In this document: one piece after another, positions 47,814 to 64,000 of the stretch
Numbering within the stretch: the stretch's first letter is position 1
How the letters are laid out: every line of letters starts with the position of its first letter
Assembly: GCA_038209745.1 (NCBI GenBank)
Contig: JBBQXJ010000010.1
Coordinates: 9,209 to 73,208 of the forward strand
Source of the DNA: Verrucomicrobiota bacterium
GTDB lineage: Bacteria > Verrucomicrobiota > Verrucomicrobiia > Limisphaerales > CANJSG01
Direction: 5' to 3'
DNA: 64,000 nucleotides
Translations under genes and position numbers: made by a program
The notes under the pieces: generated by a model
The model's input: only the letters and a program-made list of their open reading frames with translations
Told to the model about the DNA's origin: nothing
The model's database searches: none

Positions 47814-48052
47814 AGTCTATATGTTGCGGGGCTTTTCAGCCTCTGTTCACCCCGCCAGCATCCCGCTCTGCCTGCGGAACTTGAACTGCCACTCAAAGCG
47901 AGAATCGATCCAATTCCCCGCTTCCCGTCTCCACGTCAAATCCCATGACAGTATCGTCCAACCTCGAGACCTCTTAAGACGACACGCCACAAACTGGATC
48001 CATCTTACTCGTCTCGAATAAGTCCGAATGCCAAAAAAGACACAGCCATCCT

Positions 48053-48910
48053 TCAGCCCAAGTGCGCGTCGGATGTCCCCAGCAGCAGTTCGACCAAGAC
48101 GTCGGGCTCCCGGTAGTCCGCCACCAAAAGATGCGCCCCCGCCTCGGTCAACTGACGCTCCTTCCGGAGATCGGGAATCCCGGAGCCGTTGACTTCCTCG
48201 TCGCTGGCGACCGCCACCGCGAGTCCGCCGAGGTCGGCCGTATGGTGGATCTCCACCGGTCCGTCGCCGAACGACAGCAGCTGGTTCCCCTTCAAACCGT
48301 GGTCGGCCAAGATCCGCTCCAGCACCATGCGCTTGGTGAAGCCCGTCGCGTCGGGCGGACTCCCATAGATCCGGTCCTCAAAAAACGAGGACAGCTGCAA
48401 CAGCGTCGCCTCTTCCCGCACCCGGTCCTCCAGGGTGCCGCTCAGGATGGTCATCGCGATGCCGCGATCAGCCAGATTCCGCAACAGGGCGCGCGCTCCG
48501 AAGACCACGAAGTGATCCGGAAAAGCCATGCCATCGTGAATCTTGGCCGAACGCTCCTCGATCACTTCATCTAGCCGCCACTGGTATTCCACCAGAAGCT
48601 CTTCGGGCCGGGGAGTGACCGCGCCTTTCGCCGCCATGAGCTCCGTGAAACGGCGCATCTGGTGCAGGGTCGGTTGGCCGTTCAGGCTGAGGATCTCCAC
48701 CAGCAACCCGCTCCGCACGGACTCCGCGTCGTCGCCGCTCTGGAACGGGAAGTATTCCAAAAAAAGATGGGTCATGATGTCGGGCCATCCATGCCGGAGC
48801 CACGACAGCGTGCCGTCGAAGTCGAAGACCACGTGCGCGATCTCGGAGCGCGCCGTGAACGGCTGGAGGCGGTGCGGAAGCGTGCGGCCCGAATCTTGGG
48901 GTGAGGTCAT
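48053..48910 (-). CDS. HAD-superfamily hydrolase
   Basis: FDFDGT motif I, LSGT and FGDGPVEI motifs. Confidence 0.9.
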   Translation of the reverse strand: MTSPQDSGRTLPHRLQPFTARSEIAHVVFDFDGTLSWLRHGWPDIMTHLFLEYFPFQSGDDAESVRSGLLVEILSLNGQPTLHQMRRFTELMAAKGAVTPRPEELLVEYQWRLDEVIEERSAKIHDGMAFPDHFVVFGARALLRNLADRGIAMTILSGTLEDRVREEATLLQLSSFFEDRIYGSPPDATGFTKRMVLERILADHGLKGNQLLSFGDGPVEIHHTADLGGLAVAVASDEEVNGSGIPDLRKERQLTEAGAHLLVADYREPDVLVELLLGTSDAHLG

Positions 48911-48918
48911 TCGCCGGC

Positions 48919-48947
48919 TGGATACGGAGCGGAGCCGAGATTGTCAA
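48919..48947 (-). promoter_or_regulatory. Sigma70-like promoter for the HAD gene
   Basis: TTGACA-N17-TATCCA, 8 nt before the ATG. Confidence 0.5.
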
Positions 48948-49546
48948 TGAACCCTCGTGCGCGGAAGAAACTGGCGGCGGCCAGCCCGATTGATTCTGCT
49001 GAAGAAGTCGCGCCATCGCCGACGCGACCTTCGCCAAATGCCGGCGTGACAGTTGCGGAACGCATTCGAATTTCGCCTGGGTGGACGTCGACCCGACGGT
49101 CGATTGCCCGCCCTGCGAACAGCCGGTCCATCGAATCCCGAGCGGTCCGAGACTTCAGCCGGTCCCACCCATGGCGTGAGATCGTCAAACTGAGCCGGGA
49201 GAGATCGGAGTCTGGGCCACAGAAAGGACCAGCCCATCCAAGGGAAGCAACAGACCGGCAGCGCAATTCCCTTCCTCAGTTTCACGCACTTTGACCCTCC
49301 CATCCCTGAGCAATCGGCCGAAGCAAAATCCGGAGACGGACCCGGCCTCATCCGACGACATCATCCGACGACCGATTCTCCGAGGGCACCTTTGATCGCG
49401 CGCGGCTCTGGCGATCGTTCGTTCGAGCCAATAAAGCTTCCCAGCTGGATGGCTCTTCCCGATTCTGGATCCCAATTCAGCCCCGCCAGTCCACGCGTCT
49501 CGCGACGCCCGTTTCCCATGGGGTTCCCAAACCAATCAATTTGTCG

Positions 49547-51229
49547 ATGAAGACGACCCAAGACCAAGTCGCCGCAGAGAAACAATTGCTCAGCGAAGCC
49601 AAGGCCAAAGGCGGGCTCGCCACCCTCGGCGCCTACCTCAAGTGCTCCGGCCCCGGCTGGCTCCAAGGTGCCATCACCCTCGGCGGCGGCTCGCTCGCGG
49701 GCAGCCTCTATCTCGGCGTCATCGGCGGCTACAGCCTGCTGTGGCTCCAAGTGCTGGCCATGGCGATGGGTGTCGTGATGCTCAGCGCGATCACCTACGT
49801 CACGCTGTCCACCGGCAAGCGGCCCTTCCAGGCGATCAAGGACCATATCAACCCCGTGCTGGCCTGGGGTTGGGCCATCGCGACGCTCATGGCGAACATC
49901 GTCTGGTGCTTGCCCCAGTTCTCCCTCGCGACCGCTGCCGTGCTGCAAAACCTTGCCCCCGGCCTACCCGAAGCCATGGGCGACACCGGAGCGAAGCTCC
50001 TCGTCTGCGGAGTTCTGCTGGCGCTCTCGATCTCCATCATCTGGCTCTACGACAGCGGGCATCGCGGGGTGAAAATTTTCGAGCTGATCCTCAAGTTGAT
50101 GGTCGCAATAGTGGTGCTTTGCTTTTTTGGCGTGGTTTTGAAGCTCGCGACCAGCGGAGATGGTTTGGCCTGGGGCTCCGTGTTATCGGGCTTCGTGCCG
50201 GATCTCGGCCTATTGAACAAACCAGCGAGCACCTTCGACGGAGCCCTCGCTGCTACCGGCGGCTTCGCGTCCTACTGGACGAGCCTGATCGTCACCGACC
50301 AGCGCGACATCATGATCACGGCCGTCGCCACCGCCGTGGGCATAAACATGACGTTCCTTCTCCCCTACTCGATCCTGAAAAAAGGTTGGGACAAGGAATC
50401 GCGGGGGTTGGCCATTTTCGATCTAAGCACCGGCCTGCTCATCCCGTTCGTCCTCGCCACCAGCTGTGTGGTGATCGCCGCCGCCTCGCAGTTCCACGTG
50501 AAGCCCCAGCCGGGCATCATCGAAGGAACGGCTCCTGCCGGGATGATGGGGCAGTTCAACGGCCTGCTCACGGGCCGCCTGAAATCGGAGATTGGAGCGG
50601 AGGCGTTCAGCAAACTGTCGGGCGAAGCCAAAATGGCCTCTCTGACCCGGCTGCCCCACGCCGACAAACAGATGGCCGCGATGCTCGTGCGCCGCGACGC
50701 CTTCGACCTCGCCTCGGCCCTGGAACGACTCACCGGCAAAACCGTGGCAAACTATGTCTTCGGCTTCGGAGTCCTCGCCATGGCCCTTTCCACCATCATC
50801 ATGCTTATGCTCATCAGCGGCTTCACCATCTGCGAGATCTTCAACCTGCCCCAGCAGGGCTGGCCCCACCGTCTCGGCTGCCTAATCGCGGGACTCGGCG
50901 TCCTCGGGCCTTTCATCTGGACCGGAAAGACCCAGTTCTGGTTGGCGGTGCCGACGAGCGTCTTCGGTATGACCCTCTTGCCGATAGCCTATTTCACCTT
51001 CTTTCTGATGATGAACAACCGTTCGTTGATGCGGGGAGAGATCCTACGCGGAGCCAAACGCACGCTGACCAACATCATGATGCTGATCACTTTGTTGCTA
51101 TCCGGTTTCGGCGCGGGCTGGGCCATCTGGAGTAAGACCCGATGGATTGGAGTCGGCGCCGTGGCGACTTTCATCGGTCTCGCGGTCATCGTCCATTTCG
51201 TCCGTCCTCCGAAGAAGATTGGAGAGTAG
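49547..51229 (+). CDS. NRAMP-related (SLC11-like) membrane transporter
   Basis: GPGWLQGAITLGGGS..G..GGYSLLW; about 12 TMs. Confidence 0.8.
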   Translation: MKTTQDQVAAEKQLLSEAKAKGGLATLGAYLKCSGPGWLQGAITLGGGSLAGSLYLGVIGGYSLLWLQVLAMAMGVVMLSAITYVTLSTGKRPFQAIKDHINPVLAWGWAIATLMANIVWCLPQFSLATAAVLQNLAPGLPEAMGDTGAKLLVCGVLLALSISIIWLYDSGHRGVKIFELILKLMVAIVVLCFFGVVLKLATSGDGLAWGSVLSGFVPDLGLLNKPASTFDGALAATGGFASYWTSLIVTDQRDIMITAVATAVGINMTFLLPYSILKKGWDKESRGLAIFDLSTGLLIPFVLATSCVVIAAASQFHVKPQPGIIEGTAPAGMMGQFNGLLTGRLKSEIGAEAFSKLSGEAKMASLTRLPHADKQMAAMLVRRDAFDLASALERLTGKTVANYVFGFGVLAMALSTIIMLMLISGFTICEIFNLPQQGWPHRLGCLIAGLGVLGPFIWTGKTQFWLAVPTSVFGMTLLPIAYFTFFLMMNNRSLMRGEILRGAKRTLTNIMMLITLLLSGFGAGWAIWSKTRWIGVGAVATFIGLAVIVHFVRPPKKIGE

Positions 51230-51296
51230 AAACCGCCACCCGGGACCGGTCACGACGATCCGGACTCTCGAGCAAAATAGTCGGCGGCGGGGTGAA

Positions 51297-51318
51297 CCCG
51301 TTGTGCCAACACAACGGG
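51297..51318. terminator. Hairpin between convergent transporter genes
   Basis: cccgttgtg-ccaa-cacaacggg perfect 9-bp stem; weak U tail. Confidence 0.45.
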
Positions 51319-51320
51319 AA

Positions 51321-52700
51321 TCAGTGGCTAAACTCCAGTTCACTCTCCGGCAAAGGTTGGTCCTTCGTCTCGGGAGCAAACGGCAACACAGCTAGCCCCA
51401 ACAAGAAGACAACGCACATGCTCAGCCCCGCGTAGCGCAAGGGCTCCTCCGTTCCATTGAACACCCGGCTGCTGAGCAATCCCAGCGTCCAAGGGCCCGA
51501 CGCGGCGAAAAAGCGGCCGACGTTGTAGCAAAAAGACGTCCCCGTGCTCCGGAGATGCGTCGGAAACAGCTCAGGAAAGTAGATCGCGTAGCCCCCGAAG
51601 ATCCCGAACATGAAGAAGCCCATGACGGGCACCAGCACGTAGACGTGCCACGGATCCCTAAGGAACCAAAAAACTGCGGCCGTCGAAATCATGGCACCGA
51701 TGAAGGCCACTGCAAAAGCCCTCCGTCGACTTGTCCTTTGCGTAAATTTGGTGAACGCCAACATCCCGAGAAACGCCCCGATGTTCAGCATCAAGGCTGC
51801 CTTGCCCTTCCACTGCCCGGCAGCCCCCTTCAAATCGATCCCCGTCAGCCCCTCGGCTGCAAGCCGCTTTTCCATGACGGAAGCGACTAGATCAAAACTG
51901 AAGAAAACGATTCCCCACAGGGCAATCACGCCCGCACACGCGAGAACAAGTCCCACGATCGCGTTGTGCCGCCAACGGGCATCCCGGAAAAGCGCGCGAT
52001 AAGATCCTGTGTCCTTGCCCAATCCGCCGGACGCCTTCATCCGCATCCAACGCTCGGGCTCCTTCAATCGCCAACGGATCAAAAGCGCCAACATTGCCGG
52101 AATGGCGCCAATTAGGAACATGATCCGCCATTTGACCCATGATTCGGGCATTCCACCTGTCCGTTGCCAGGTGCTCAAGCCCATTTCGATCAGAGCCGCC
52201 GCCACGTTCCCCACCGCCGAAAGGGCCTGCAACAGCCCAAGCGCATACGGTCGCGCCCGGGCAGGCATAACCTCGGCCACCAGAGCCACTCCAACCGCGA
52301 ACTCCCCACCCACACCAAGGCCAGTCAAGAAACGATAGAACGAAAAATCCCAAAACCCTTTCGACAGCGAACTCAAGCCGGTGCAGAGCGAATAGATCAA
52401 AATGGTGATCATCATCGTCTTTGCCCTTCCGATCCGGTCTCCCAATACCCCAAAAATAAGCCCGCCGGTAGCCCAGCCCAGAATGAAGATCGCCGTCACG
52501 TAGCCGGCATACTCATTCACGTCCGTGCCCGCAGGCAGGAGATCCCTCATGGCCGGAATGCGAGCCATGAGAAACAACTGCTGGTCCAGACAATCGAAAA
52601 GCCACCCAAGCGCCGCGACCAAAAGAACGAACCAATGGTAGCGGGACAACCCGTGCCACCAAGGCAATCGCGGAACGAAAGAATCAGTCGAAGACTTCAT
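51321..52700 (-). CDS. MFS transporter
   Basis: LGWLFD; G.LGDRIGR motif A; GVGGEF; PELFPT..RSTG; PETK. Confidence 0.93.
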   Translation of the reverse strand: MKSSTDSFVPRLPWWHGLSRYHWFVLLVAALGWLFDCLDQQLFLMARIPAMRDLLPAGTDVNEYAGYVTAIFILGWATGGLIFGVLGDRIGRAKTMMITILIYSLCTGLSSLSKGFWDFSFYRFLTGLGVGGEFAVGVALVAEVMPARARPYALGLLQALSAVGNVAAALIEMGLSTWQRTGGMPESWVKWRIMFLIGAIPAMLALLIRWRLKEPERWMRMKASGGLGKDTGSYRALFRDARWRHNAIVGLVLACAGVIALWGIVFFSFDLVASVMEKRLAAEGLTGIDLKGAAGQWKGKAALMLNIGAFLGMLAFTKFTQRTSRRRAFAVAFIGAMISTAAVFWFLRDPWHVYVLVPVMGFFMFGIFGGYAIYFPELFPTHLRSTGTSFCYNVGRFFAASGPWTLGLLSSRVFNGTEEPLRYAGLSMCVVFLLGLAVLPFAPETKDQPLPESELEFSH

Positions 52701-52788
52701 GATACAATTTTCCAAGCGCTAACATCGACACCGCAATGGAATTCCAAAACGAGCAAGCCCACTCCAGAATGATCCGAAATCGAAACGC

Positions 52789-52816
52789 AAAAAAAGCCCG
52801 TTCCGAAGAACGGGCT
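52789..52816 (-). terminator. Intrinsic terminator of the alpha operon
   Basis: AGCCCGUUC-UUCG-GAACGGGCU followed by a U run on the minus strand. Confidence 0.92.
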
Positions 52817-52846
52817 CTTAATGAATCTAATCTTAACAAATGTAAA

Positions 52847-53329
52847 TCAGCTCTTCGCGGAGACTTTTTTCGGATCAATTTTCTCGGCGGAAGTAGAGCC
52901 GCCAGGCTGAGCGTCAATCCACTCCAATATTGCCATTGAAGCAGCATCACCCCGGCGCTGCCCAAGCTTGATAATACGAGTATAACCACCGACGCGCTCC
53001 CTGCTAAGAGGTGCGATCTCCTTGAAAAGAGTCTTCACCACGTCTTCTTGGCGCAATCGAGACGCTGCCAAGCGGCGATAGTGGATACCCTTGGCGATAA
53101 GATCGCGCTTCTTGTCGGAATCGCTGATCTGTTCCGCCGCCTCATTGGCCACCAATGACTTTTTGCCGAGCGTCAACATTTTCTCAGCGACAGACCGGGC
53201 CGCCCGTGCCTTCGCCAAGGTTGTCGTGATACGACGATGGATGATAAGACTGCAAACCATGTTGGCCAACATCGCATTACGATGGGTGCCTGTTCGGCCC
53301 AGCTTGGCCGTTCTCTTCAAGTGACGCAT
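52847..53329 (-). CDS. rplQ: 50S ribosomal protein L17
   Basis: MRHLKRTAKLGR and GGYTRIIKLG.RRGD motifs. Confidence 0.97.
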   Translation of the reverse strand: MRHLKRTAKLGRTGTHRNAMLANMVCSLIIHRRITTTLAKARAARSVAEKMLTLGKKSLVANEAAEQISDSDKKRDLIAKGIHYRRLAASRLRQEDVVKTLFKEIAPLSRERVGGYTRIIKLGQRRGDAASMAILEWIDAQPGGSTSAEKIDPKKVSAKS

Positions 53330-53341
53330 AACAATCTAAGC

Positions 53342-54352
53342 CTAATTGTTTAAATCTTCCTTCGGCGCTTCCAGCAAGGCCGGGTCGAGAGTCATACCCA
53401 AGCTCAGTCCCAAAGTGGCGAGCTTTTCCTTGATCTCATTTAGTGACTTCTTGCCGAAGTTCCGATATTTGAGCATCTCCGACTCAGTTTTCATCGCCAG
53501 CTGTCCCACGCTGGTGATGTTCGCGTTGTTGAGGCAGTTTGCGGCCCGAACACTCAACTCAATCTCATTCACGCTCATGTTGAGGAGCTTCTTGAGCTTA
53601 GACTTCTCATCATCAACCTTCGTCTCTTCCTTCTCAAACTCCACCGCATTCTTGTCATAACCGACAAATACGTCCAAATGGTGTTGCAGAATGGCAGAAG
53701 CTTGTGTCAACGCGTCGTCCGGCGTGATGCGGCCGTCAGTCCAAATCTCTACGACCAGACGGTCATAGTCGGTCCGTTGGCCAACTCGGGCGTTTTCGAC
53801 TGAGTATCGAACCCTGGTTACCGGGGAGAAAAGAGAATCGATTGCAACGACCCCAATCGGCTGATCGACCTTTTTGTTTTCGTCCCCTGGGCAAAATCCA
53901 CGTCCAATCTTCACCTCGAGCTCCATCTCGAACTTTTTCTTTTTATCGAGAGTACAGATGTGTTGTTTCGGATTGACAACCTCAATGTTTTGATTTGTCT
54001 CGATATCAGCTGCCGTAACCGCTCCATCTCGATTCACCGAAATCCTGAGCATTTGCGGTTCTCGACTGTGTGCCTTGAAGAGGACCTTCTTCAGGTTCAG
54101 CACAATCTCCGTCACGTCTTCACTGACTCCGTCTGTCGTTGTAAACTCATGCATCGCACCGTCAACTTTGATCGATGTCACTGCAGCGCCCTCAAGGGAC
54201 GAAAGAAGCACGCGCCGTAGCGAATTACCTATTGTTTGGCCGTAACCGGTTTCAAAGGGCTCAGCGAAAAACTTTGCGAACGTTTCCGTCGAAGTCGACT
54301 CTTCTTTAGTCAACCTCTTCGGCATTTCAAAACGACCTAGACGAACTGGCAT
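53342..54352 (-). CDS. rpoA: RNA polymerase alpha subunit
   Basis: GYGQTIGNSLRRVLLSS, LSVRAANCL and NFGKKSL motifs. Confidence 0.98.
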   Translation of the reverse strand: MPVRLGRFEMPKRLTKEESTSTETFAKFFAEPFETGYGQTIGNSLRRVLLSSLEGAAVTSIKVDGAMHEFTTTDGVSEDVTEIVLNLKKVLFKAHSREPQMLRISVNRDGAVTAADIETNQNIEVVNPKQHICTLDKKKKFEMELEVKIGRGFCPGDENKKVDQPIGVVAIDSLFSPVTRVRYSVENARVGQRTDYDRLVVEIWTDGRITPDDALTQASAILQHHLDVFVGYDKNAVEFEKEETKVDDEKSKLKKLLNMSVNEIELSVRAANCLNNANITSVGQLAMKTESEMLKYRNFGKKSLNEIKEKLATLGLSLGMTLDPALLEAPKEDLNN

Positions 54353-54449
54353 GTTATTCCTTTTGCAATTTTAATCTGACCCACTGACCGACCCGCAGCG
54401 GCAATGAACCCATATAATTGCTGTTCCCTTATTAGGGCTCTAAAATTTA

Positions 54450-55058
54450 CTAGCGGGAATAGAACTCGACAACCGCCTGCTCATTGGCAATCGGCTGAAT
54501 TTCCTCGCGGGTCGGAACCCGCATCACAACACCTTTGAAAATATTTTTGTCAACCGACAGCCAGTCTGGAACCACACGGCTAGTTGAGCCTTCAATCGCT
54601 TTTGTTGCCAATTGTTTTGAAACCGTCGATTCCTTGACTTCGATCACGTCGCCAACCTTCAGCGCGTAGGATGATATATCAACCTTCCGGCCGTTTACTT
54701 TGACATGCCCGTGACCAACCATTTGCCTTGCTTGGGCACGGGTCGTGGCGAAACCAATCTGGAACACCACGTTGTCCAATCGTGTCTCAAGAATCTGAAG
54801 CATCTGCTCTCCAGTCACGCCACGACGTCGAACCGCCTTCTCATAGACTCCACGGAACTGTTTCTCCATCAGCCCATAATAATGCCGAAGCTTCTGCTTC
54901 TCCATAAGCGCCAGGGCGAATTCCGTCGTCTTGCGACGGGACTTCTGCCCGTGGACTCCTGGAGCGTAGTTCCGGCGGTCAAGGTATTTTGACGGACCGA
55001 AGATTGGAACACCGAAGCGGCGACTTATGCGCGTGCGGGGACCTGTATAGCGTGCCAT
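54450..55058 (-). CDS. rpsD: 30S ribosomal protein S4
   Basis: MARYTGP, EKQKLR and LETRLDNVV motifs. Confidence 0.98.
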   Translation of the reverse strand: MARYTGPRTRISRRFGVPIFGPSKYLDRRNYAPGVHGQKSRRKTTEFALALMEKQKLRHYYGLMEKQFRGVYEKAVRRRGVTGEQMLQILETRLDNVVFQIGFATTRAQARQMVGHGHVKVNGRKVDISSYALKVGDVIEVKESTVSKQLATKAIEGSTSRVVPDWLSVDKNIFKGVVMRVPTREEIQPIANEQAVVEFYSR

Positions 55059-55089
55059 TTTCCGAATTAAAAGTTAAGGTTTCTAAGAC

Positions 55090-55620
55090 TTACACCCGAC
55101 GCTTCTTTCGGGGTCTGCAGCCATTGTGTGGAACCGGTGTAACATCCTTGATCGTGGTGATCTCCAGTCCAATCGCTTGAAGCGCTCGTATCGCCGACTC
55201 CCTACCGGACCCAGGGCCTTTGACCCGAACCTCGATCTCTCGTAAGCCATGAGACATTGCTTGCCGTGCGGCGTCCTGAGCGACTTGTTGGGCCGCAAAA
55301 GCTGTGCTCTTGCGAGAACCTTTAAAACCAACCCGCCCCGCCGTTGACCACCCCAGGGTATTGCCCTGCATGTCTGTAATATTAACGGTTGTGTTGTTAA
55401 AGGTTGCTAGAATGTTAGCGACCCCAACCGCGATGTTTTTCGAACCCTTTGCCTTGACTATCTTTTTGGAATTCGGATCGTCGGCAAGCAGTTCGGCAGC
55501 GCTAGGAGCGGAGCCAGCAACTGGCCCCGTCGCACCCACAGGAGCCTCAACAACCTTAATAGCCGATTTCGGATCCCTCTTTTGAGCTGGGACCTTTTTG
55601 GTCTTTGTCTCTTCTGCCAT
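55090..55620 (-). CDS. rpsK: 30S ribosomal protein S11 (N-terminally extended)
   Basis: [15 protein letters not shown] and [12 protein letters not shown] motifs. Confidence 0.98.
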
Positions 55621-55644
55621 AGGTTAACAAATTCAGGATTAAAA

Positions 55645-56022
55645 CTACTTTGCAGCCTTCTGGGCACCGACCGTTCTGCGAGGACCCTTACGGGTTCTCG
55701 CATTGGTTTGGGTGCGTTGCCCACGAACAGGCATTCCGCGAAGATGACGAACCCCTCGATAGCACTTGATCCCCTGCAGGCGCTTTAGATTCATCCCAAT
55801 TTCGCGGCGTAAGTCACCCTCAATAACATACCCGCCCTCTTGGATTGCATGAACTATCTTTGAAAGCTGCTGCTCCGAGAGCTCTCTAGCCCGCACTCCG
55901 TGCTCGATCTGGGCCTTGTCCAAAATATTCCGGGCATTAACCGGACCAATTCCGTAGACATAGCGCAGAGCAATATCAATTCGCTTTTCGCCGGGGATTT
56001 CTACACCAATGATGCGTGCCAT
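55645..56022 (-). CDS. rpsM: 30S ribosomal protein S13
   Basis: PVRGQRTQTNARTRKG motif. Confidence 0.98.
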   Translation of the reverse strand: MARIIGVEIPGEKRIDIALRYVYGIGPVNARNILDKAQIEHGVRARELSEQQLSKIVHAIQEGGYVIEGDLRREIGMNLKRLQGIKCYRGVRHLRGMPVRGQRTQTNARTRKGPRRTVGAQKAAK

Positions 56023-56033
56023 AACGTAAATTT

Positions 56034-56150
56034 TTAGCCCTGTCGCTGCTTATGACGTGCGTTTGTTGAACAAATGACCCGTATTACGCCCTTGCGTCGG
56101 ATAATTTTACAATTTTCACACAACTTTTTAACTGACGCACGAACCTTCAT
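56034..56150 (-). CDS. rpmJ: 50S ribosomal protein L36 (Zn-ribbon type)
   Basis: Hand-translated [38 protein letters not shown]; too short for the ORF track. Confidence 0.97.
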
Positions 56151-56232
56151 AAAATCTTTATCCAACTGGGGATCGCTTATCTGCCCCAAGAGCCTAAATT
56201 TTAAAATTAATTACGGGTTGTTTGACTACAAC

Positions 56233-56997
56233 TTATCCACTCTGGCCTGATCGCTGAAGCGTAAGGATTTCAGGAACTGTTTCGGTGATCAAGACAGTAT
56301 GTTCAAAATGGGATGAAAGAGAACCATCTTGCGTCACTACTGTCCAGCCATCTTTCAATATTTTCACTTCGGCCCGTCCAGCATTAACCATCGGCTCAAT
56401 AGCCAAAGTCATTCCAACCTTAAGGCGATCCGAACGTCCAGCTGCCACGAAATTTGGCACTTGAGGATCCTCATGCACTGATCGACCCACGCCGTGGCCA
56501 ACAAATTCTCTAACCACTGAATACCCATTGCTTTCCACTCGGCTCTGTATCGCCCGAGATATGTCAAGTATTCGATTCCCGATGACCGCTTTCGCAATTC
56601 CATCAGAAAGCGCCTGTTCGGTGACATCAATTAACCTCTGCGCCTCTGGACTGCATCCACCAACGACAAAAGTCGCAGCGGTGTCGCCTACAAATCCATT
56701 TAGAATGACCCCACAATCAACACTGACGATATCACCAAAATTAATACTCCGATTACGCCCAATCCCATGAACAACTTCATCATTTACCGATATGCACACA
56801 TTTCCTGGAAAGTTCCGATATCCAAGAAATGCACTTTTCCCAAAGTGGCGCCCGATAGTCTCCGCAGCAAATCGGTCAATCTCACTTGTGAAGAGCCCTG
56901 GCTTCAAAAACCTACCGACTTCATACAGAACAACCGCCGCAACTCGGCAGGCGGGGCGCATAGCCTTGAGTTCATTTTCGGTTTTGAGGTGAATCAT
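56233..56997 (-). CDS. map: Methionine aminopeptidase type I
   Basis: CISVNDEVVHG, GHGVG..HEDP, AIEPM and HFEHTV motifs. Confidence 0.97.
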   Translation of the reverse strand: MIHLKTENELKAMRPACRVAAVVLYEVGRFLKPGLFTSEIDRFAAETIGRHFGKSAFLGYRNFPGNVCISVNDEVVHGIGRNRSINFGDIVSVDCGVILNGFVGDTAATFVVGGCSPEAQRLIDVTEQALSDGIAKAVIGNRILDISRAIQSRVESNGYSVVREFVGHGVGRSVHEDPQVPNFVAAGRSDRLKVGMTLAIEPMVNAGRAEVKILKDGWTVVTQDGSLSSHFEHTVLITETVPEILTLQRSGQSG

Positions 56998-57015
56998 CTT
57001 ACTGCTTGGGCCAAC

Positions 57016-58422
57016 TCAGAACCGCCCCTTCAGTCGCCCTTTCTTCAGAAACCCATCGTAATGGCGCATCAATAAATAGCTCTCCATCTGGCGCATCGTA
57101 TCCAAAATGACCCCGACGGTGATAAGCATGCTTGTTCCTCCAAAAAACTGTCCAACTAAAGGATCAATGTTGAAGACGCTCGCCAGTATTATCGGAATCA
57201 CTGCGATCACGGCAAGAAATATCGCCCCCGCTAGCGTGATTCGCGACATTGTCCCGTGAAGAAAATCGCTGGTTGCTGCCCCGGGGCGAATACCAGGTAT
57301 GTAGCCGCCAGATTTCTTCATATCATCGGCGATCTGCAACTCATTAAATTGGGTTGCCACCCAAAAGTAGGAAAAGAAGAGGATCATAAGCGCAAGAAGC
57401 ACTATATATCCGATCGTTCCAAACATAATTGAATTCGCCACAACGGTAATCCATCGGTGGATTTCCGGCTGTTCTACCTTACCAGCAATACCTCTCAGTA
57501 TCTGTTCGGGAAACATCAAAATCGCATTTGCAAAAATGACCGGCATGACGCCAGCATAATTGACGCGTAGCGGCATAAAAGAGCTACCCCCCGAAATAAT
57601 CTTTCTGCCAATTGCTCTTTGAGCATATTGAACAGGAATTTTGCGCTGTCCTTGCGTGACGGCCACGACGCCCGCAATCACCGCAATCAGTAAGAGAATT
57701 AGAGCTATCGGGACAAACGGATTAAAATGAATTTCAGACCCGGCTGGTGGAACAATCAGCTTTAACATTCCAAGGAGAGCTTTAGGCATCGCTGACAAAA
57801 TGCTGATCGTGATGATGAGCGAAACGCCATTCCCCACTCCCCTGTCCGTAACCTGTTCACCCAGCCACATCAACAACACCGTCCCTCCCCCGAGGACAAG
57901 CATTGTTTGTAAACGATACCACCAGATATGTTCCTTCATTGCTCCGACCAAAAGATCCCCTGCAAAATTTCCAAAACCTGGAAGGTTGCTCGGATTTTCC
58001 CAGCTTAGAGCCATGAAAAAGCCCTGCCCCAATGCAAGAATTACAGCAAGATATCGGCCGTACTGGATAAATTTCGTCCTTCCACCTTCCTCTCTGACCA
58101 TTTTACTCAGTCGGGGCACTACTGCGCTCAACAGCTGAAGGACGATAGTTGCGCTTATGTAGGGCATGATACCCAAGGCACCGATCGCACATCGCCCGAA
58201 TCCCCCGCCAGTAAACAGGCTATAGAGACCTACCAGCCCGCCTTGCCCTTGAGCTGAATTTTGTTCAAGAAACAACTGCAATGCCCGACTGTCAAGACCC
58301 GGAACTGGCGCCAGCGAAGCCAATCGTGCAATTCCTAGCACGATAAGAGTAAAGACTATCCGGCTTTTCAGCTCGGGTATCTTGAAACAATTGACGAAGG
58401 TTTTGGAGATTTCAGCGAACAT
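57016..58422 (-). CDS. secY: Preprotein translocase SecY
   Basis: LGIMPYISATI, WLGEQ..G.GNGVS, IPGIRPG and FGGTS motifs. Confidence 0.98.
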   Translation of the reverse strand: MFAEISKTFVNCFKIPELKSRIVFTLIVLGIARLASLAPVPGLDSRALQLFLEQNSAQGQGGLVGLYSLFTGGGFGRCAIGALGIMPYISATIVLQLLSAVVPRLSKMVREEGGRTKFIQYGRYLAVILALGQGFFMALSWENPSNLPGFGNFAGDLLVGAMKEHIWWYRLQTMLVLGGGTVLLMWLGEQVTDRGVGNGVSLIITISILSAMPKALLGMLKLIVPPAGSEIHFNPFVPIALILLLIAVIAGVVAVTQGQRKIPVQYAQRAIGRKIISGGSSFMPLRVNYAGVMPVIFANAILMFPEQILRGIAGKVEQPEIHRWITVVANSIMFGTIGYIVLLALMILFFSYFWVATQFNELQIADDMKKSGGYIPGIRPGAATSDFLHGTMSRITLAGAIFLAVIAVIPIILASVFNIDPLVGQFFGGTSMLITVGVILDTMRQMESYLLMRHYDGFLKKGRLKGRF

Positions 58423-58438
58423 GAGCGAAACAGGACGA

Positions 58439-58912
58439 TCAAACCGCTAACGCATCGACAGATCGGCTTTGAATAAGGATGCATGTTCCGCCCGCCTTCT
58501 CGATCTTTGCTCGCGCCTCGACACTGAATCTGTGTGCTGAAACAATCAGCTTCTTGGTCAGCGCGCCATCGCCGAGTATTTTCACACGTTTTACGGGACC
58601 CGTTGCAAGACCGATTGATCGCAGAACCTCCCAGTCAACAACGGCTCCATCATCGAAAATTTCCAATGATTCCACATTGACAGGTGAATAGCGAATCGTG
58701 TGACGAGCATTGTTAAATCCCCGTTTCGGAATCCTCCGGAACAGTGGCATTTGGCCACCCTCAAACCCGATTCGGCGGGAGCCACCCGAACGAGCGCTTT
58801 GGCCCTTACCGCCACGCCCAGACGTCTTGCCGTGACCGCTGGATTCTCCAGAGCCTAGCCGCTTGCGACGATGCTTAGCCCCTGGATTTGGTTTTAAATC
58901 ATGTAGGCGCAT
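58439..58912 (-). CDS. rplO: 50S ribosomal protein L15
   Basis: GKTSGRGGKGQ and GFEGGQMPL motifs. Confidence 0.98.
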   Translation of the reverse strand: MRLHDLKPNPGAKHRRKRLGSGESSGHGKTSGRGGKGQSARSGGSRRIGFEGGQMPLFRRIPKRGFNNARHTIRYSPVNVESLEIFDDGAVVDWEVLRSIGLATGPVKRVKILGDGALTKKLIVSAHRFSVEARAKIEKAGGTCILIQSRSVDALAV

Positions 58913-58918
58913 AAAAAT

Positions 58919-59554
58919 TTAATTGATGACGGCATCGACCTTCTTAATCTCCAATCCGCGACTACGATAGATTTCTTCCCGAAGTCTAAGGTTCTGGAGC
59001 GCGGCCAATGTGGCCTTGACGACATTAGCGGGGTTGCTTGAACCAAGCGATTTACTAAGGATATTTTTAATCCCGGCTGACTCAAGGACTGACCGAACTG
59101 TCTTTCCTGCAATAATTCCTGTTCCTGGCGAAGCAGGCTTCAAGAGAATCCGTGCCCCACCAAAAGCTGAAAAAACTTCGTGGGGGATTGTCCCCTCCTT
59201 CAAAGAGATCGACAAAAGTTTCGCCCTGGCAACCTCACCACCTTTTCGGATTGCATCCGAAACTTCGCGGCCCTTGCCAAGGCCAACTCCAACTTTTCCC
59301 TTTTTGTCACCAACGACCACAAGTGCAGAGAAGCTGAATCTACGTCCGCCCTTAACTACCTTGGCTGAGCGATTAATGAAAACAACCTTCTCGCTAAGCT
59401 CTTTTCCGTCTCCATCACCGCCACCGTCCCGATTGTTGCGGCCCCGTCTTGGCTGTCGCCCAAAACCACGCGGTCCGCTAAATGCGCCTGAACCTTGGGC
59501 CGGAGTTGAGGTATTGTCTGATTTTGGTTGTTCTGACACAGTGTTGTTCTCCAA
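58919..59554 (-). CDS. rpsE: 30S ribosomal protein S5
   Basis: [22 protein letters not shown] start uncertain. Confidence 0.96.
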
Positions 59555-59560
59555 CTTGGG

Positions 59561-59926
59561 TTAAAACAAAAGACCACCGGCACGCGCTGCGTCGGCCAAG
59601 GCCTTCACTTTACCGTGATAACGTGAACTACCTCGGTCGAAGATTACCGCTTTGATCCCCATTGCAGTTGCCGCCTTTGCCGCAATGCCACCGACCAGGA
59701 CTGCGGTTGCTATATTTGCACCAACGCTGTAACCAGCCGGCAGGATATCCGATGTTGTGCACGTTGCGGCCAAAGTACGCCCGCAACTATCGTCCACAAA
59801 TTGCACATGGATGTGCTGGTTTGTGAAACAAACGCTCATTCGCGGCCGCTGCGCTGAACCCGACACCTTGGACCTCACCCGCCAACGCCGTCGGATTGCA
59901 AGTTCTTGTTTCTTTTCGATTCTCAT
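59561..59926 (-). CDS. rplR: 50S ribosomal protein L18
   Basis: RPRMSV and [20 protein letters not shown] motifs. Confidence 0.96.
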
Positions 59927-59963
59927 GTTCAACAAGGCCACGGAATATCCGCAACCGGAAAAA

Positions 59964-60500
59964 TTACTGGACCGTCTTGCCTTCTTTGCGAACGACCCGC
60001 TCGTCATGATATTTGACGCCCTTACCTTTGTAAGGTTCCGGAGGATAGTAGCTCCGAATTTCAGATGCCACCAGACCGACTACTTGCCGATCAGGCCCTT
60101 CCACCAAAATTTTCGTCCCCTCTTCGATGGTAACCTTAATCTGTTCTGGAATCAAATAGTTGATCGGATGCGAATATCCAAGGTTCAACGTTACTGTCTT
60201 ACCAGAAACAGAAGCCTTAAATCCAACTCCGTTGATCTCCAATCGTTTCGTAAAGCCTACGGTGACCCCCACCACCATGTTGTTGATCAATGCGCGACTG
60301 AGTCCGTGCATGGCACGAGCCTCAGAATCATCATTCGACCGGGACACAACAATCTCGTTCCCTTGCATCTTCGCTACAGTCAGTCGCGGAAGCTCAATAC
60401 TAAGTTTTCCTTTGGGCCCTTCGACGTCTATGCGGCGTCCTTTAAGCTCAACTTTGACCTTAGCCGGGATCAATACCGGAAGTTTGCCAATACGTGACAT
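59964..60500 (-). CDS. rplF: 50S ribosomal protein L6
   Basis: MSRIGK and PEPYKGKG motifs. Confidence 0.98.
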   Translation of the reverse strand: MSRIGKLPVLIPAKVKVELKGRRIDVEGPKGKLSIELPRLTVAKMQGNEIVVSRSNDDSEARAMHGLSRALINNMVVGVTVGFTKRLEINGVGFKASVSGKTVTLNLGYSHPINYLIPEQIKVTIEEGTKILVEGPDRQVVGLVASEIRSYYPPEPYKGKGVKYHDERVVRKEGKTVQ

Positions 60501-60515
60501 AATTGTTATCTAAAC

Positions 60516-60905
60516 CTACCAAATGAAGCAAAGAACCTCACCACCGATTCTAGAACTGCGAGCCTGTCGCCCGGACATAATTCCTTGTGAAGTTGAAATG
60601 ATCGCCACCCCTAGGCCGCCGCGCACCCTAGGTAGTGCGGATGCACCGGCATAGGTTCTAAGGCCCGGGCTGCTAATCCTACGCAGGCCCTCGATGACCG
60701 GCCGCCTTCCCTCGTATTTCAAACCAAGACTAATTGTCTTAATTGTTTCGCCTGAGACAGAAAAGTCGGAAATATATCCCTCTTTCCTCAATATGTGAGC
60801 GATTCCTTCCTTAACTTTGGAATGGGGCATCTCCACGGCTGTTAGATTTGCACGCCCGCCGTTGCGGATACGCGTCAGCATGTCTGAAATCGGATCGCTA
60901 TTCAT
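60516..60905 (-). CDS. rpsH: 30S ribosomal protein S8
   Basis: DPISDMLTRIRN and STSQG motifs. Confidence 0.98.
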   Translation of the reverse strand: MNSDPISDMLTRIRNGGRANLTAVEMPHSKVKEGIAHILRKEGYISDFSVSGETIKTISLGLKYEGRRPVIEGLRRISSPGLRTYAGASALPRVRGGLGVAIISTSQGIMSGRQARSSRIGGEVLCFIW

Positions 60906-60908
60906 ATC

Positions 60909-61178
60909 TTACCAACTAGCTTTTGTTACTCCAGGAATAAGTCCATTGAGAGCAAGTTCTCGGAAGGTCAAGCGGGAAGATTTAAACTTCCGCATATATC
61001 CGTGTCTCCGCCCCGACATTTCGCAGCGGTTTACAATTCGACTAGGACTAGCATTTCGAGGAAGTTTTGATAGCCCAGAATAATCTCCCTTTGCCTTTAA
61101 TTCAGCCCGGATGACGGCAAATTTTTTAACAACAGCCGCTTTTTTCTTATTCCGCTCGATCCAAGATTTCTTAGCCAT
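60909..61178 (-). CDS. rpsN: 30S ribosomal protein S14 (89-aa, zinc-independent type)
   Basis: LPRNASP..NRC..SGR and PGVTKASW motifs; only one Cys. Confidence 0.97.
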
Positions 61179-61186
61179 AAAATTTC

Positions 61187-61729
61187 TTATCTTTCAGCGA
61201 ATGGCATTCCAAGCAACTTGAGAAGATCGAAGGCCTCACTATTGGTTGGCGCGGAGGTCACGATAGTTATGTCCATTCCCTGATTCCGTTTGATCTTATC
61301 CAGTTCAATTTCGGGAAATATGCTTTGGTCAGGAAGCCCTACCGAATAATTTCCACGCCCGTCGAACTTCTTTGGCGATGTTCCCCTAAAATCCCTGATC
61401 CTTGGCAGAGTAACTGCCACTAGACGATCAAAGAACTCGTACATAGTATCCCGCCTCAACGTGACTCTGCAACCAATGGACTGTCCTTCGCGAAGCTTAA
61501 AGTTAGCCACGCTTTTCCGGGCCTTGCTAATAACAGGTTTTCTTCCTGTAATAACTGTCAAATCTTTAATCGCTTCATCCATCGCACTCTTTTCGTTCGA
61601 AGCGCTAATCCCCATGTTGACCACAATCTTCTCGATTCTTGGGACTTGGTGGTCGTTAAAATACTTATGCTTTTCCTTCAAGGCAGGCACGACCTCCTCG
61701 AGGTATTTTTTGTAGATGCGCGAATTCAT
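61187..61729 (-). CDS. rplE: 50S ribosomal protein L5
   Basis: LPRIRDFRG and FDGRGNY motifs. Confidence 0.98.
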
Positions 61730-61772
61730 TTCGATAGTATCCGGATTGTGCCGGACAAATGTGCCTAACTTA

Positions 61773-62042
61773 TTAGGCAGTAGCCTTCATTGATCGTTTA
61801 TGATCATAAACCGAGGATCGGACGAGATTCGAGACGTGAATAGTCCCTTCTCTCTCAACTATTGAACCCTGAGGGTGATCTTGGCTTCGTTTTACATGCT
61901 TCTTGATCAACTTTAGGCCCTCAATAGTTGCCCGTTGTCCCTTTGTATGCATTTGCAAAATCTTGCCTCGCTTGCCCTTCTCAGAACCCGCGATTACAAC
62001 AACTTCATCGCCACGTCTTACGTGAAATTTTCCAATGCTCAT
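61773..62042 (-). CDS. rplX: 50S ribosomal protein L24
   Basis: KOW motif GD.V.VIAG..KGKRG; IHVSN. Confidence 0.95.
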
Positions 62043-62404
62043 ATGACCTCTGGTGCGAGCGAAATAATCTTCATGAACTTCTTCTCCCTAAGTTCCCGGG
62101 CAACGGGTCCGAAAATCCTAGTGCCCCTCGGATTATTGTCTTTATCAATGATCACGATGGCATTGCGGTCAAATCGGACATATGACCCGTCGTCACGTCG
62201 GATCGACTGTCTAGTCCGAACAACGACCGCATTTACGACCTCTCCTTTTTTAACCGTCCCATCCGGAGTAGCCTCTTTTATATGGGCTTTGATCACATCG
62301 CCAATACCCGCATACATCTGGTTTCTCCCAAGAACACCAATAGTCGCCGCCCGCTTGGCTCCAGTATTGTCGGCCACATCTAGAATTGATCGGATCTGAA
62401 GCAT
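62039..62404 (-). CDS. rplN: 50S ribosomal protein L14
   Basis: VADNTGAK and [13 protein letters not shown] motifs. Confidence 0.98.
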
Positions 62405-62426
62405 ATAAATTCCTTAAATTGAAGCT

Positions 62427-62717
62427 TTAAGCGGTTACAAATGTCGCCTGGACGCTTTTTTCGACAACCTCAACCAACCTCCAGCGTTTCATCCGAGAAA
62501 TTGGCCGTGTCTCGTGGATCCGCACAACGTCCCCAATCATTGCTTCACCATTTTCGTCATGGGCGTGAAACTTTGAAAATGAGGTGACGACCTTTCTAAA
62601 TTTTGGATGTGGATAACGCCGCTCTACTTTCACGACGATTGTTTTGATCATTTTGTTAGAAACGACCTTGCCAATCCGTTCCTTTCGACTCCCGCGCTCT
62701 ACGATGTTCTCGGACAT
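62427..62717 (-). CDS. rpsQ: 30S ribosomal protein S17
   Basis: G.VVSNKM.KT, AHDE and ETRPIS motifs. Confidence 0.97.
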
Positions 62718-62722
62718 ATGCT

Positions 62723-62923
62723 TTAATTTGAGCTTTGGGGTTTGCCTTGGGAGAGTCGGGTCTCGATTCGGGCGATGTCTCGCCGCAAATGCCTCAATTT
62801 TGCAGGCTTTTCGAGCTGACTGCTAGCCTGTTGAAGACGCAGGTTGAACATCTCTTGGCGAAGTTCACGCCCCTTTGCCGCCAATTCAGAGGCCGTCAAT
62901 TCCTTCAACTCTGGGAAATTCAT
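62723..62923 (-). CDS. rpmC: 50S ribosomal protein L29
   Basis: MNFPELKEL...FNLR...RRDIARIET. Confidence 0.95.
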
Positions 62924-62945
62924 ACTCTTATCACCTATTAGTTTT

Positions 62946-63365
62946 TCAGCCGACCTTATGGCGGGAAATAAATTTGGTCGCGATTGGAAGCTTTGTCGCG
63001 GCAAGACGCATTGACTCTCGTGCGACCGCTTCAGTTACACCTTCAACCTCAAGCAATACTGCTGCGGGTCGAATCACCGCCACCCAAGATTCGACGCCCC
63101 CTTTCCCTGTACCCATGCGGGTTTCCAGAGGCTTTTTCGTGTAAGACTTATCCGGGAATACCCTAATCCAAACCTTCCCGCGCCGCTTCATATAACGAGT
63201 AACCGCCACCCGGGCGGCCTCGATTTGCTTTGTATCAAGCCAGCACCTCTCCAAGGCCTGCAATCCGTATTCACCAAATGCAACGCAATTGCCCCGAGTC
63301 GCCAGACCGGTCCGGCTCCCTCGATGCATTTTGCGATACTTTACTCTTGCGGGCATCATTGCCAT
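62946..63365 (-). CDS. rplP: 50S ribosomal protein L16
   Basis: QIEAARVA and [13 protein letters not shown] motifs. Confidence 0.98.
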
Positions 63366-63387
63366 AAGCTGTTTCTGCTAAATTGTT

Positions 63388-64000
63388 TTAGTTAGTCTGT
63401 ACGGGAGCTGCGCTGCCGCGATCTATCTTTTCGGCCCTAGCCTGCTTGATATCGACCTTCTTGATCTCTCCATGACAGATCCAACACTTAATTCCCAGTC
63501 GCCCATAAACCGTTTTGGCTTCGGCGAATCCGTAATCAATGTTTGCCCGAAGGGTGTGTAGCGGAACCCGCCCCTCACGATATTGCTCAACCCTCCCTAT
63601 CTCCGAACCTCCAAGGCGACCAGCGCATCGGATGCGAATTCCTTCCGCTCCAAAATCCATCGCTGTTTGAAGTGCCTTCTTCATAGCTCGGCGGAAAGAC
63701 ACCCGACGTTCCAGCTGAACAGCCACATTTTCGGCAACCAGTTGAGCATCAATCTCTGGTTGCTTTACTTCTTGGATGTCAACATAGACATCTTTGCCGG
63801 TCATTTTGCTAAGCTCTTCCTTCAGCTTGTCAATTTCGGCCCCTTTGCGCCCAATCACTACGCCAGGTCGGGCAGTAAAAATTGTCACCCGGCAGCGGCT
63901 GGTGGCCCGCTCAATGTGTATTTTCGGGACAGCTGCGGATTCTAGGCGCTTTTTTAAGATAGCTCTGATTCTGCGATCTTCGTTAAGCAGATTTCCAAAT
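63388..64000 (-). CDS. rpsC: 30S ribosomal protein S3 (5' end outside window)
   Basis: [17 protein letters not shown] and [10 protein letters not shown] motifs; frame runs to the window edge. Confidence 0.97.

Follow-up and report, generated by a model that had tools for sequence, protein, structure and literature searches.

The ribosomal-protein superoperon of a GC-rich verrucomicrobial genus is a native low-GC block beside which the genome has most likely risen in GC content

The ribosomal-protein superoperon lies in a deep GC trough

We analysed a stretch of 64,000 nt (hereafter the window) from contig JBBQXJ010000010.1 (forward strand, positions 9,209-73,208; G000:C10:9209-73208), whose last base is also the contig's last base, in the metagenome-assembled genome (MAG) of a sediment verrucomicrobium (G000; 4.58 Mb in 140 contigs, GC content 0.633, completeness 92%, contamination 2.6%). 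From rplQ to rpsC (window positions 52847-64000, minus strand), the spc and alpha parts and the S10 tail of the ribosomal-protein superoperon form a low-GC block, over which GC falls from about 0.65 to about 0.50 and GC at third codon positions (GC3) from about 0.8 to about 0.5, a drop that a first-pass annotation of the window had reported. We find that this block is native and vertically inherited, is the organism's only copy of these genes and stands in conserved synteny, and that its composition is a maintained local equilibrium, not a slowly decaying relic. Most likely the genome of the genus rose by about 11 GC points while the block stayed, and we tentatively favour the explanation that the rise came about through GC-biased gene conversion, which a recombination-cold superoperon would have escaped.

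By kilobase, GC is 0.61-0.69 over the first 50 kb of the window, drops to 0.58 and 0.54 at 51-53 kb and stays within 0.45-0.53 from there to 64 kb; by gene, the 20 block genes scored have GC3 of 0.37-0.61, the adjoining major facilitator superfamily (MFS) transporter gene has 0.70 and three flank genes have 0.77-0.83. All nine GC values that the first-pass annotation had counted by hand in 60-mers proved exact on recount, as did its GC3 values of 16/38 for rpmJ and 37/38 for 38 codons from position 39240. It had also called for a sliding GC scan of the whole genome. Among 4,225 3-kb windows (mean GC 0.634, standard deviation 0.023), only 20 fall below 0.55, in six regions, of which the ribosomal trough is the largest (12 kb, minimum 0.475). 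The five other 3-kb troughs all contain island-type genes or genes without a family match (such as a DS8-like anti-phage protein and an exopolysaccharide cluster), and were therefore rejected as hidden ribosomal loci. Among 50 smaller low-GC patches inspected by open reading frame (ORF), translation genes occur in only a few, which we take from their N-termini to be rplM/rpsI, rplU, nusA and trpS.

Codon usage in the block is almost flat: the effective number of codons (Nc) is 57.6, relative synonymous codon usage is about 1 for all four codons of Ala, Gly and Thr, and the bases at fourfold-degenerate (4-fold) sites are A.22, C.23, G.27 and T.28. GGG, AGA, AGG, CGA, ATA and TTA are used freely, and the optimal-codon enrichment of highly expressed genes is absent; the CGA, ATA, TTA and CTA codons that had been remarked on in the ribosomal genes occur 67, 39, 17 and 27 times in the block. 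For comparison, 2,083 long ORFs taken as background give Nc 42.1 and a GC3 of 0.78, which may be somewhat inflated since the highest-GC3 frame was taken among overlapping frames; the three curated flank genes agree with it. For rpsB plus groEL, Nc is 29.3, and C occupies 74% of the 4-fold sites once rpsA is added.

The depression acts regionally on DNA and not on single genes, since the intergenic spacers of the block are low as well (GC 0.39), the co-located non-ribosomal genes map and secY are low in GC like their ribosomal neighbours, and the adjacent genes on both sides are intermediate. The MFS gene (51321-52715, minus strand; a match to subfamily TIGR00895) forms the transition zone, with GC3 of 0.64-0.72 in its first 350 codons and 0.80-0.84 in codons 351-450. 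It lies behind a terminator-like hairpin just after rplQ (52819-52792 on the minus strand), in which a 12-pair stem is followed by a T run; thus the first-pass annotation had rightly placed the change in or near the MFS gene, downstream of the operon terminator. Upstream of rplB, the divergently transcribed gene in the same-genus genome G004 is intermediate in GC3 (0.68) and in divergence. The amino-acid composition of SecY is not decisive, as its content of Gly, Ala, Arg and Pro tracks the genome and its GC at first codon positions is intermediate.

The block is native and vertically inherited

A low-GC stretch at the contig end of a 140-contig MAG could suggest that assembly or binning had joined a high-GC contig to the ribosomal contig of another organism. 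Such a chimera is, however, refuted by bridging contigs and by MAGs of the same genus, and we give it practically no credence. Logan contigs from three other sediment runs cross the junction at constant depth, namely, X2 (49384-58681, 9.3 kb), X3 (47088-64000, 18.8 kb) and X7 (49384-64000, 16.5 kb), and two bridging contigs run about 1.85 kb beyond the window end. The coverage break that the first-pass annotation had raised as a concern is therefore not found; contigs of other runs span 47-64 kb at even depth. A secY match is present in three of the six same-genus MAGs (G001, G004 and G005), and all three show an identical junction, with the same trough beside the same MFS gene; in G004 and G001, GC is 0.60-0.66 on both sides of it. 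A tblastn search of G000 with 21 window proteins returned no second copy of the block genes, and this single copy of each led us to reject a second ribosomal gene set or contamination.

Ancient displacement of the native operon by that of a lower-GC relative, with amelioration yet to occur, is a more serious candidate in view of the atypical composition, the break of the S10 operon just upstream of rplB, the fragment of an IS1182-family transposase about 0.9 kb upstream of rplB, and the MFS protein of G000, which is 79% identical to that of the low-GC G031 and 50% identical to that of its own genus. Nevertheless, we consider it very unlikely. The trees of SecY, of 13 and 17 concatenated block proteins, of RpsA and of RpsA plus GroEL all keep the genus together in the same neighbourhood, as one clade (99) beside G031, G032 and G035 (13-14 taxa; the block tree with added taxa has 2,247 columns). 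The phylogenetic conflict expected of a horizontal island is absent, since the block trees and the RpsA or RpsA plus GroEL trees agree on both the clade and its sisters; the genus is not nested within a low-GC clade, and the ribosomal proteins belong to the same lineage as RpsA and GroEL rather than to a different, lower-GC one, which the first-pass annotation had suggested checking. GroEL alone gives a poorly resolved tree, and two groEL matches occur in G001. G013 appeared as sister of the genus in 8-taxon trees, a placement that we dropped since enlarging the trees to 13-14 taxa moves G013 next to G034 and leaves G031, G032 and G035 as the sisters. Moreover, the silent sites of the block are saturated within the genus (see below), so no imported composition would have survived unless the local regime is itself different, and that leads back to the explanation that we favour.

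Synteny points in the same direction. An orthologue of the MFS gene adjoins rplQ in G001, G004 and G005 (48-50% identity) and at the related loci L106, that of G031 (79%), and L101 (55%), so the block is not patchy among close relatives. In agreement with the first-pass annotation, no tRNA was found within 44-64 kb, and the repeats flanking the block are only chance-level pairs. The same S10 split before rplB is present in G013, G029 and G021, while the operon is intact in G012 and G018; since G029 and G021 have the split without a trough, it argues against replacement, and we rejected the split itself as the trough's cause.

Relatives indicate that the genome probably moved while the block stayed

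The difference in GC3 between groEL and secY is 0.26-0.45 in all four genus genomes that have both genes, versus -0.08 to +0.06 in all but one of 20 genomes that represent other families of the order, the exception being G013 with 0.21. Likewise, flank GC minus operon GC at related rpoA loci is -0.04 to +0.09 in the 52 measurable cases out of 80, versus about 0.14 here. In the sisters G031, G032 and G035, GC outside the block is 0.51-0.53 (rpsA locus and block flank), the block is at 0.48-0.50 and rpsA has GC3 0.66-0.70, and in this genus the corresponding values are 0.61-0.63 (rpsA locus), 0.48-0.51 and 0.88-0.92. Outside the block, genomes of the genus stand at 61-63% GC, with GC3 of about 0.8-0.9. 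Since the sisters stand at about 52% GC with a block of 48-50%, parsimony and the two loci per sister indicate that the genome of the genus most likely rose by about 11 GC points while its block stayed. The AT-ward change of the block that the first-pass annotation had proposed is thus most likely to be read in the reverse direction. G013 (contig C13) and G034 (locus L152) form a second lineage with a weaker version of the trough: GC outside the block, GC of the block, rpsA GC3 and secY GC3 are 0.64, 0.54, 0.94 and 0.59 in G034, and 0.67, 0.55-0.62, 0.95 and 0.73 in G013. It seems, then, that the phenomenon arose more than once or comes in degrees.

Silent sites in the block are saturated and still at about 50% GC

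Between G001 and G004, the 4-fold sites of the 20 block genes are only 37% identical (26% being expected by chance), and the proteins are 79-98% identical. The median 4-fold distance for this pair (F81-type, for which values above about 1.4 are near saturation) is 1.45 in the 20 block genes, 0.79 in 16 genes of the tuf cluster and 0.29 in 15 flank genes; thus, the reduced synonymous divergence of highly expressed genes is absent in the block. Over 52 ORF pairs, GC at 4-fold sites (GC4) and distance are correlated with a Spearman rho of -0.77, a correlation to which neighbouring genes do not contribute independently. This calculation excludes six of the 58 listed pairs, three with fewer than 40 sites and three judged to be in a wrong frame; the latter have a 4-fold identity (0.89-1.00) higher than their amino-acid identity at GC4 0.39-0.61, and would run against the trend if they were real genes. 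In the same comparison the 4-fold distance is 0.09 for rpsA versus 2.06 for secY, and in the control pair G029-G021 the two values are 1.36 and 0.96.

Since the silent sites are saturated among members of the genus, and so have turned over several times, yet still stand at about 50% GC, the composition of the block is a maintained local equilibrium. For the same reason, a change in genome-wide mutational bias is no explanation, because the block turns over and yet stays put. The suggestion in the first-pass annotation that these are native core genes under a persistent substitution regime of their own is hereby borne out by their single copy, congruent trees and saturated silent sites at about 50% GC. 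At the strain level the picture is different. Runs X2, X3 and X7 contain a strain whose divergence from the window is 0.58-0.90% in pieces confined to the flank and 0.75-1.03% in pieces that lie in or bridge the block, a ratio of only about 1.1-1.5. A large local mutation excess in the block is unlikely.

On both sides of the block, patches of 97-98% 4-fold identity between G001 and G004 end before the block is reached. They lie at G004:C77 9767-13460 and 31435-32505 against G001:C171 (loci L042-L045), where the proteins are 97-99% identical, in genomes that otherwise share about 84% DNA identity. Judged by their sequence, these near-identical patches may be tracts of recent exchange that stop short of the ribosomal block, although the resemblance is only suggestive.

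Other translation genes and highly expressed genes

The trough is not general to highly expressed genes, because rpsA (GC3 0.88), rpsB (0.90), tsf (0.86) and groEL (0.88) of G000 are high. The first-pass annotation had advised looking at other highly transcribed loci, with a mixed outcome: groEL and also atpD (0.81 and 0.84) are high, and the tuf-rpoBC cluster, read in G004 and G001, is intermediate. This cluster has the order tuf-secE-nusG-rplKAJL-rpoBC-rpsLG-fusA-rpsJ-rplCDW, with GC3 of 0.57 in tuf, about 0.61 in rplK and rplA, 0.61-0.70 over rplKAJL, 0.79 in rpoC and 0.80 in rplD; in G004, rpsJ-rplCDW, which form the S10 operon's head, have 0.66-0.80. The small ribosomal operons of G000 are mildly depressed (rplS 0.76, rplT 0.77, rplM 0.72, rpsF 0.70, rplU 0.68), and nusA (0.62) and infB (0.68) are low too. 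On other contigs, genes that we take from their N-termini to be pth, trmD and ssb are likewise GC-depressed; the names tsf, infB, rpsI, rpsP and rpmI are likewise presumed from N-termini. It appears that the tuf-rplKAJL-rpoBC-str cluster and the small ribosomal operons may have joined the GC rise only partly, with neighbouring genes intermediate.

In codon usage, rpsA, rpsB-tsf and groEL (G000:C8:37921-39450, C77:20816-22572 and C60:7427-9001) show a strong C-ending bias, with Nc of about 29-30 and no GGG, AGA or AGG, and most ribosomal-protein genes of G000 are unbiased or weakly biased. In the G000 MAG itself, tuf, rpoB and rpsJ were not found, in line with published evidence that ribosomal operons drop out of bins (PMC9723686). 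The only tuf gene in the same-genus MAG G002 (C734, locus L080, a contig of 1.85 kb) has 68% identity to the tuf of the genus and GC3 0.85; this contig is probably a stray from another organism, and we treated it as such and did not use it.

Proposed escape from a recombination-linked GC drive, and its rivals

The explanation that we favour, tentatively and somewhat short of even confidence, is that the GC of the genome was raised by a force that depends on homologous recombination, namely GC-biased gene conversion. If the ribosomal-protein and RNA-polymerase genes are recombination-cold, they would stay at mutational equilibrium and lose GC-ending codons, and they would not be homogenised by gene flow between related lineages, which in this proposal is why the block looks far more diverged than its flanks. 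We prefer biased gene conversion because it is a known GC-raising force that varies along the genome, and because the gene classes that are recombination-cold in other species are those depressed here. Core genes that recombine were found to have the higher GC3 in 11 of 14 species (Lassalle et al. 2015, PMC4450053), and ribosomal proteins were reported to be recombination-cold in all ten species studied, with RNA polymerase so in almost all (Yahara et al. 2016, PMC4866539). The signature expected of a region that escapes conversion is present here: GC3 of about 0.5 versus about 0.8 in coding sequence, spacers at 0.39, and intermediate values in the MFS gene (0.70) and in the divergent gene upstream of the G004 block (0.68). 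Mutation in bacteria is AT-biased, and non-recombining regions of eukaryotes (mating-type and sex-linked regions) drift to lower GC3. The block resembles such regions in that a stretch presumed not to recombine differs in composition and sequence from its freely recombining flanks, but it belongs to a prokaryote without meiosis and consists of essential housekeeping DNA. A bolder version, which we regard as possible but hold with less confidence, would be that recombination-dependent GC-biased gene conversion was strong enough to lift GC3 by about 30 points across the whole genome within one genus, while the non-recombining superoperon records the true mutational equilibrium, with near-equal base use, and is a bacterial speciation island that diverged long before the rest of the genome.

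Several points weigh against this explanation. That the block is recombination-cold is presumed from other species, and the mosaic pattern of identity described above is only suggestive. According to our calculation from simple theory, release from gene conversion would raise synonymous turnover about 1.4-1.7 fold; the silent excess of at least 5-fold exceeds this, and therefore needs the added assumption that gene flow homogenises the flanks. An effect of 30 GC3 points is far above the few points reported in PMC4450053. Within the tuf cluster, rpoB and rpoC in the middle (GC3 0.63-0.79) are higher than tuf at the edge (0.57), so there is no simple valley, and GC3 tracks expression about as well as position. 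The very high GC3 of rpsA, rpsB and tsf needs a separate account, such as strong selection for C-ending codons. Scaled to RpsA, block proteins evolve about twice as fast in the genus as in the sisters, which escape from gene conversion alone does not predict, and the barely shifted amino-acid make-up of SecY does not fit either. Finally, the GC of the sister genomes was sampled at two loci each rather than over whole genomes.

The first-pass annotation had tentatively linked the trough to very high transcription, by way of deamination, poorer repair or a different nucleoid protection. In this account, mutation in the block would be shifted locally towards AT, through deamination of the exposed non-template strand, conflicts between replication and transcription or less effective repair, and the block would thereby stay at 50% although the genome as a whole is under pressure towards GC. 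It fits the ranking of the genes expected to be most transcribed, which are the most depressed (block about 0.5, tuf 0.57, rplKAJL 0.61-0.70, rpoC only 0.79), the association of low GC with high synonymous divergence, the higher frequency of T than of A at coding-strand 4-fold sites in all three genomes, and the 2-fold acceleration of the block proteins. However, rpsA, rpsB, tsf and groEL, expected to be equally transcribed, have GC3 of 0.86-0.90, and rpsJ-rplCDW in G004 are at 0.66-0.80. The strand asymmetry is weak and inconsistent, since only one of the three genomes has more G than C at 4-fold sites, and the strain differences given above show no 5-fold excess. In addition, that the block equals the sisters' block in GC would be a coincidence under two opposed pressures. 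Loss of a repair gene as the cause was rejected, since all 31 relatives searched have Mfd and family-1 Ung was found in a single one of them, with no genus-specific pattern (other repair genes were not searched). Taken together, transcription-linked mutagenesis is a weaker rival than gene-conversion escape and, in our judgement, unlikely to be the cause.

Selection at the RNA level, which would keep the polycistronic messages of the translation apparatus AT-richer through weaker folding for coupling or autoregulation, cheaper nucleotides or deliberately unoptimised codons, could account for the depression in nearly all ribosomal-protein operons searched (rplM 0.72, rplS 0.76, rplT 0.77, rpsF 0.70, rplU 0.68, nusA 0.62). 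A compositional constraint on the whole message would leave single sites free to drift and thus allow a high synonymous divergence, and the lower-GC ribosomal clusters of Xylella and Xanthomonas oryzae have been so interpreted (PMC8495750). On the other hand, the effect extends past the terminator into the MFS gene and, upstream, into a gene transcribed divergently, 19 of the 20 genomes from other families of the same order lack it at similar GC, and the near-equal use of the four bases at 4-fold sites resembles an absence of selection; we therefore think this alternative improbable, more so than an effect of transcription.

Relation to earlier observations and implications

Long ribosomal-protein operons are known to have an atypical oligonucleotide composition and to be lost from MAGs (Mise and Iwasaki 2022, PMC9723686), and a dip at the spc operon of Thermotoga appears in an older note (PMC2289816). 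As in the former study, the long ribosomal operon here deviates from the genome and small ribosomal operons do so less, genes are missing from bins (secY is found in 3 of 6 same-genus MAGs, and tuf, rpoB and rpsJ are missing from G000), and related operon contigs occur in MAGs labelled as other phyla. Unlike in that study, where the deviation is ascribed to strong codon bias under selection for fast growth, the block here shows no codon bias (Nc 57.6) and steers clear of the codons that are optimal for the organism, and its synonymous divergence is faster, not slower. Clustered ribosomal and information-processing genes fall below the rest of the core genome in GC in Xylella fastidiosa and Xanthomonas oryzae (PMC8495750), as they do here. 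As far as the available text of that paper goes, however, this is described as a shift in distribution rather than a trough of 15 points in GC and 30 points in GC3, and a comparison with sister genomes that indicates which side moved is present only here. Our observations share with PMC4450053 and PMC4866539 the lower GC3 where recombination is (here, presumably) rarer, the involvement of non-coding or neighbouring DNA and the matching gene classes, but the magnitude is an order larger here, and in their available text neither paper connects the two facts or reports a ribosomal operon that failed to follow a GC rise. A full-text literature search, with subscription journals outside its coverage, returned no such operon with evidence from sister genomes, no trough of such size, and none that lacks codon bias and has raised silent divergence.

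Why many bacterial genomes are GC-rich is a long-standing open question with two main candidate answers, selection and biased gene conversion. This genus holds two regimes side by side on one contig, with sisters that presumably show the earlier state, so the trough may expose the force that makes bacterial genomes GC-rich; if the gene-conversion reading is true, the genus is a natural experiment on that question. There are practical consequences as well. Ribosomal-operon contigs of the group are lost from bins or put in wrong ones, and trees of ribosomal proteins carry a shift in both composition and rate, with block branches in the genus about double those of the sisters when scaled to RpsA. 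Growth-rate predictors read the codon bias of ribosomal genes, and those based on codon bias would call these organisms extremely slow.

Layout of the locus and additional observations

All 20 longer genes of the block match NCBIfam equivalogs, in canonical order. On the minus strand from 52847, the genes are rplQ, rpoA, rpsD, rpsK, rpsM, rpmJ, map, secY, rplO, rpsE, rplR and rplF, and onward to 64000 they are rpsH, rpsN, rplE, rplX, rplN, rpsQ, rpmC, rplP and rpsC. The last gene of the block, rplQ (L17; 52847-53329, TIGR00059, 1.5e-33), has GC3 0.615, and it is followed on the map by rpoA, encoding RNA polymerase alpha (53342-54352, NF003513, 1.3e-133; GC3 0.59), and by rpsD, rpsK and rpsM (54450-56022, NCBIfam; GC3 0.53-0.59), of which the start of rpsK is uncertain. 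The gene of 38 codons at 56034-56150 we take to be rpmJ (L36) from its translation and from the first-pass annotation. Methionine aminopeptidase (map) and secY occupy 56233-58422 (TIGR00500 and TIGR00967; GC3 0.41 and 0.52), and the thirteen genes from rplO to rpsC lie at 58439-63999 (NCBIfam; GC3 0.37-0.55), with the 5' end of rpsC cut by the contig end; all of these are on the minus strand. Beyond the hairpin (52792-52819, minus strand) and the MFS gene, the first fully normal flank gene (49541-51229, plus strand; GC3 0.82) has a weak Nramp-like match below cut-off (NF037982).

The superoperon continues on the 7.5-kb contig C125 with rplB-rpsS-rplV (GC3 0.42-0.49), so that the full block from rplB to rplQ measures about 14.5 kb, most of it in the window. 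On C125, these genes are preceded by high-GC DNA with eboE and, at the S10 break, by the C-terminal fragment of the IS1182-family transposase (C125:4492-5130, minus strand, locus L012). The genes rpsJ-rplC-rplD-rplW are not directly upstream of rplB, and the operon begins at rplB in G000, G001 and G004; in G004, rpsJ-rplCDW follow fusA within the tuf-rpoBC-str cluster.

Among the other low-GC regions of G000, one 4-kb island at a contig end (G000:C79:18407-20914, locus L001) encodes a protein of 836 residues that matches the DS8 anti-phage family below its curated cut-off. Sixteen loci (L085, L093, L095, L110, L113, L114, L118, L129, L132, L133, L135, L139, L146, L153, L154 and L162) carry an rpoA 81-86% identical to that of G000 in MAGs whose titles name other groups (Baltobacteraceae, Saccharimonadales, Haliangiales, Gemmataceae, Limnocylindrales, Actinomycetes, Bifidobacterium, Obscuribacter, Angelobacter and Akkermansia), and these ribosomal-operon contigs look mis-binned or mislabelled. 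Elsewhere in the window, at 46669-47335, the summed depth of Logan contigs doubles in all four runs, and many of these contigs end at 47078-47117, inside a hybrid histidine-kinase gene, which suggests that this segment is repeated or common to other organisms.

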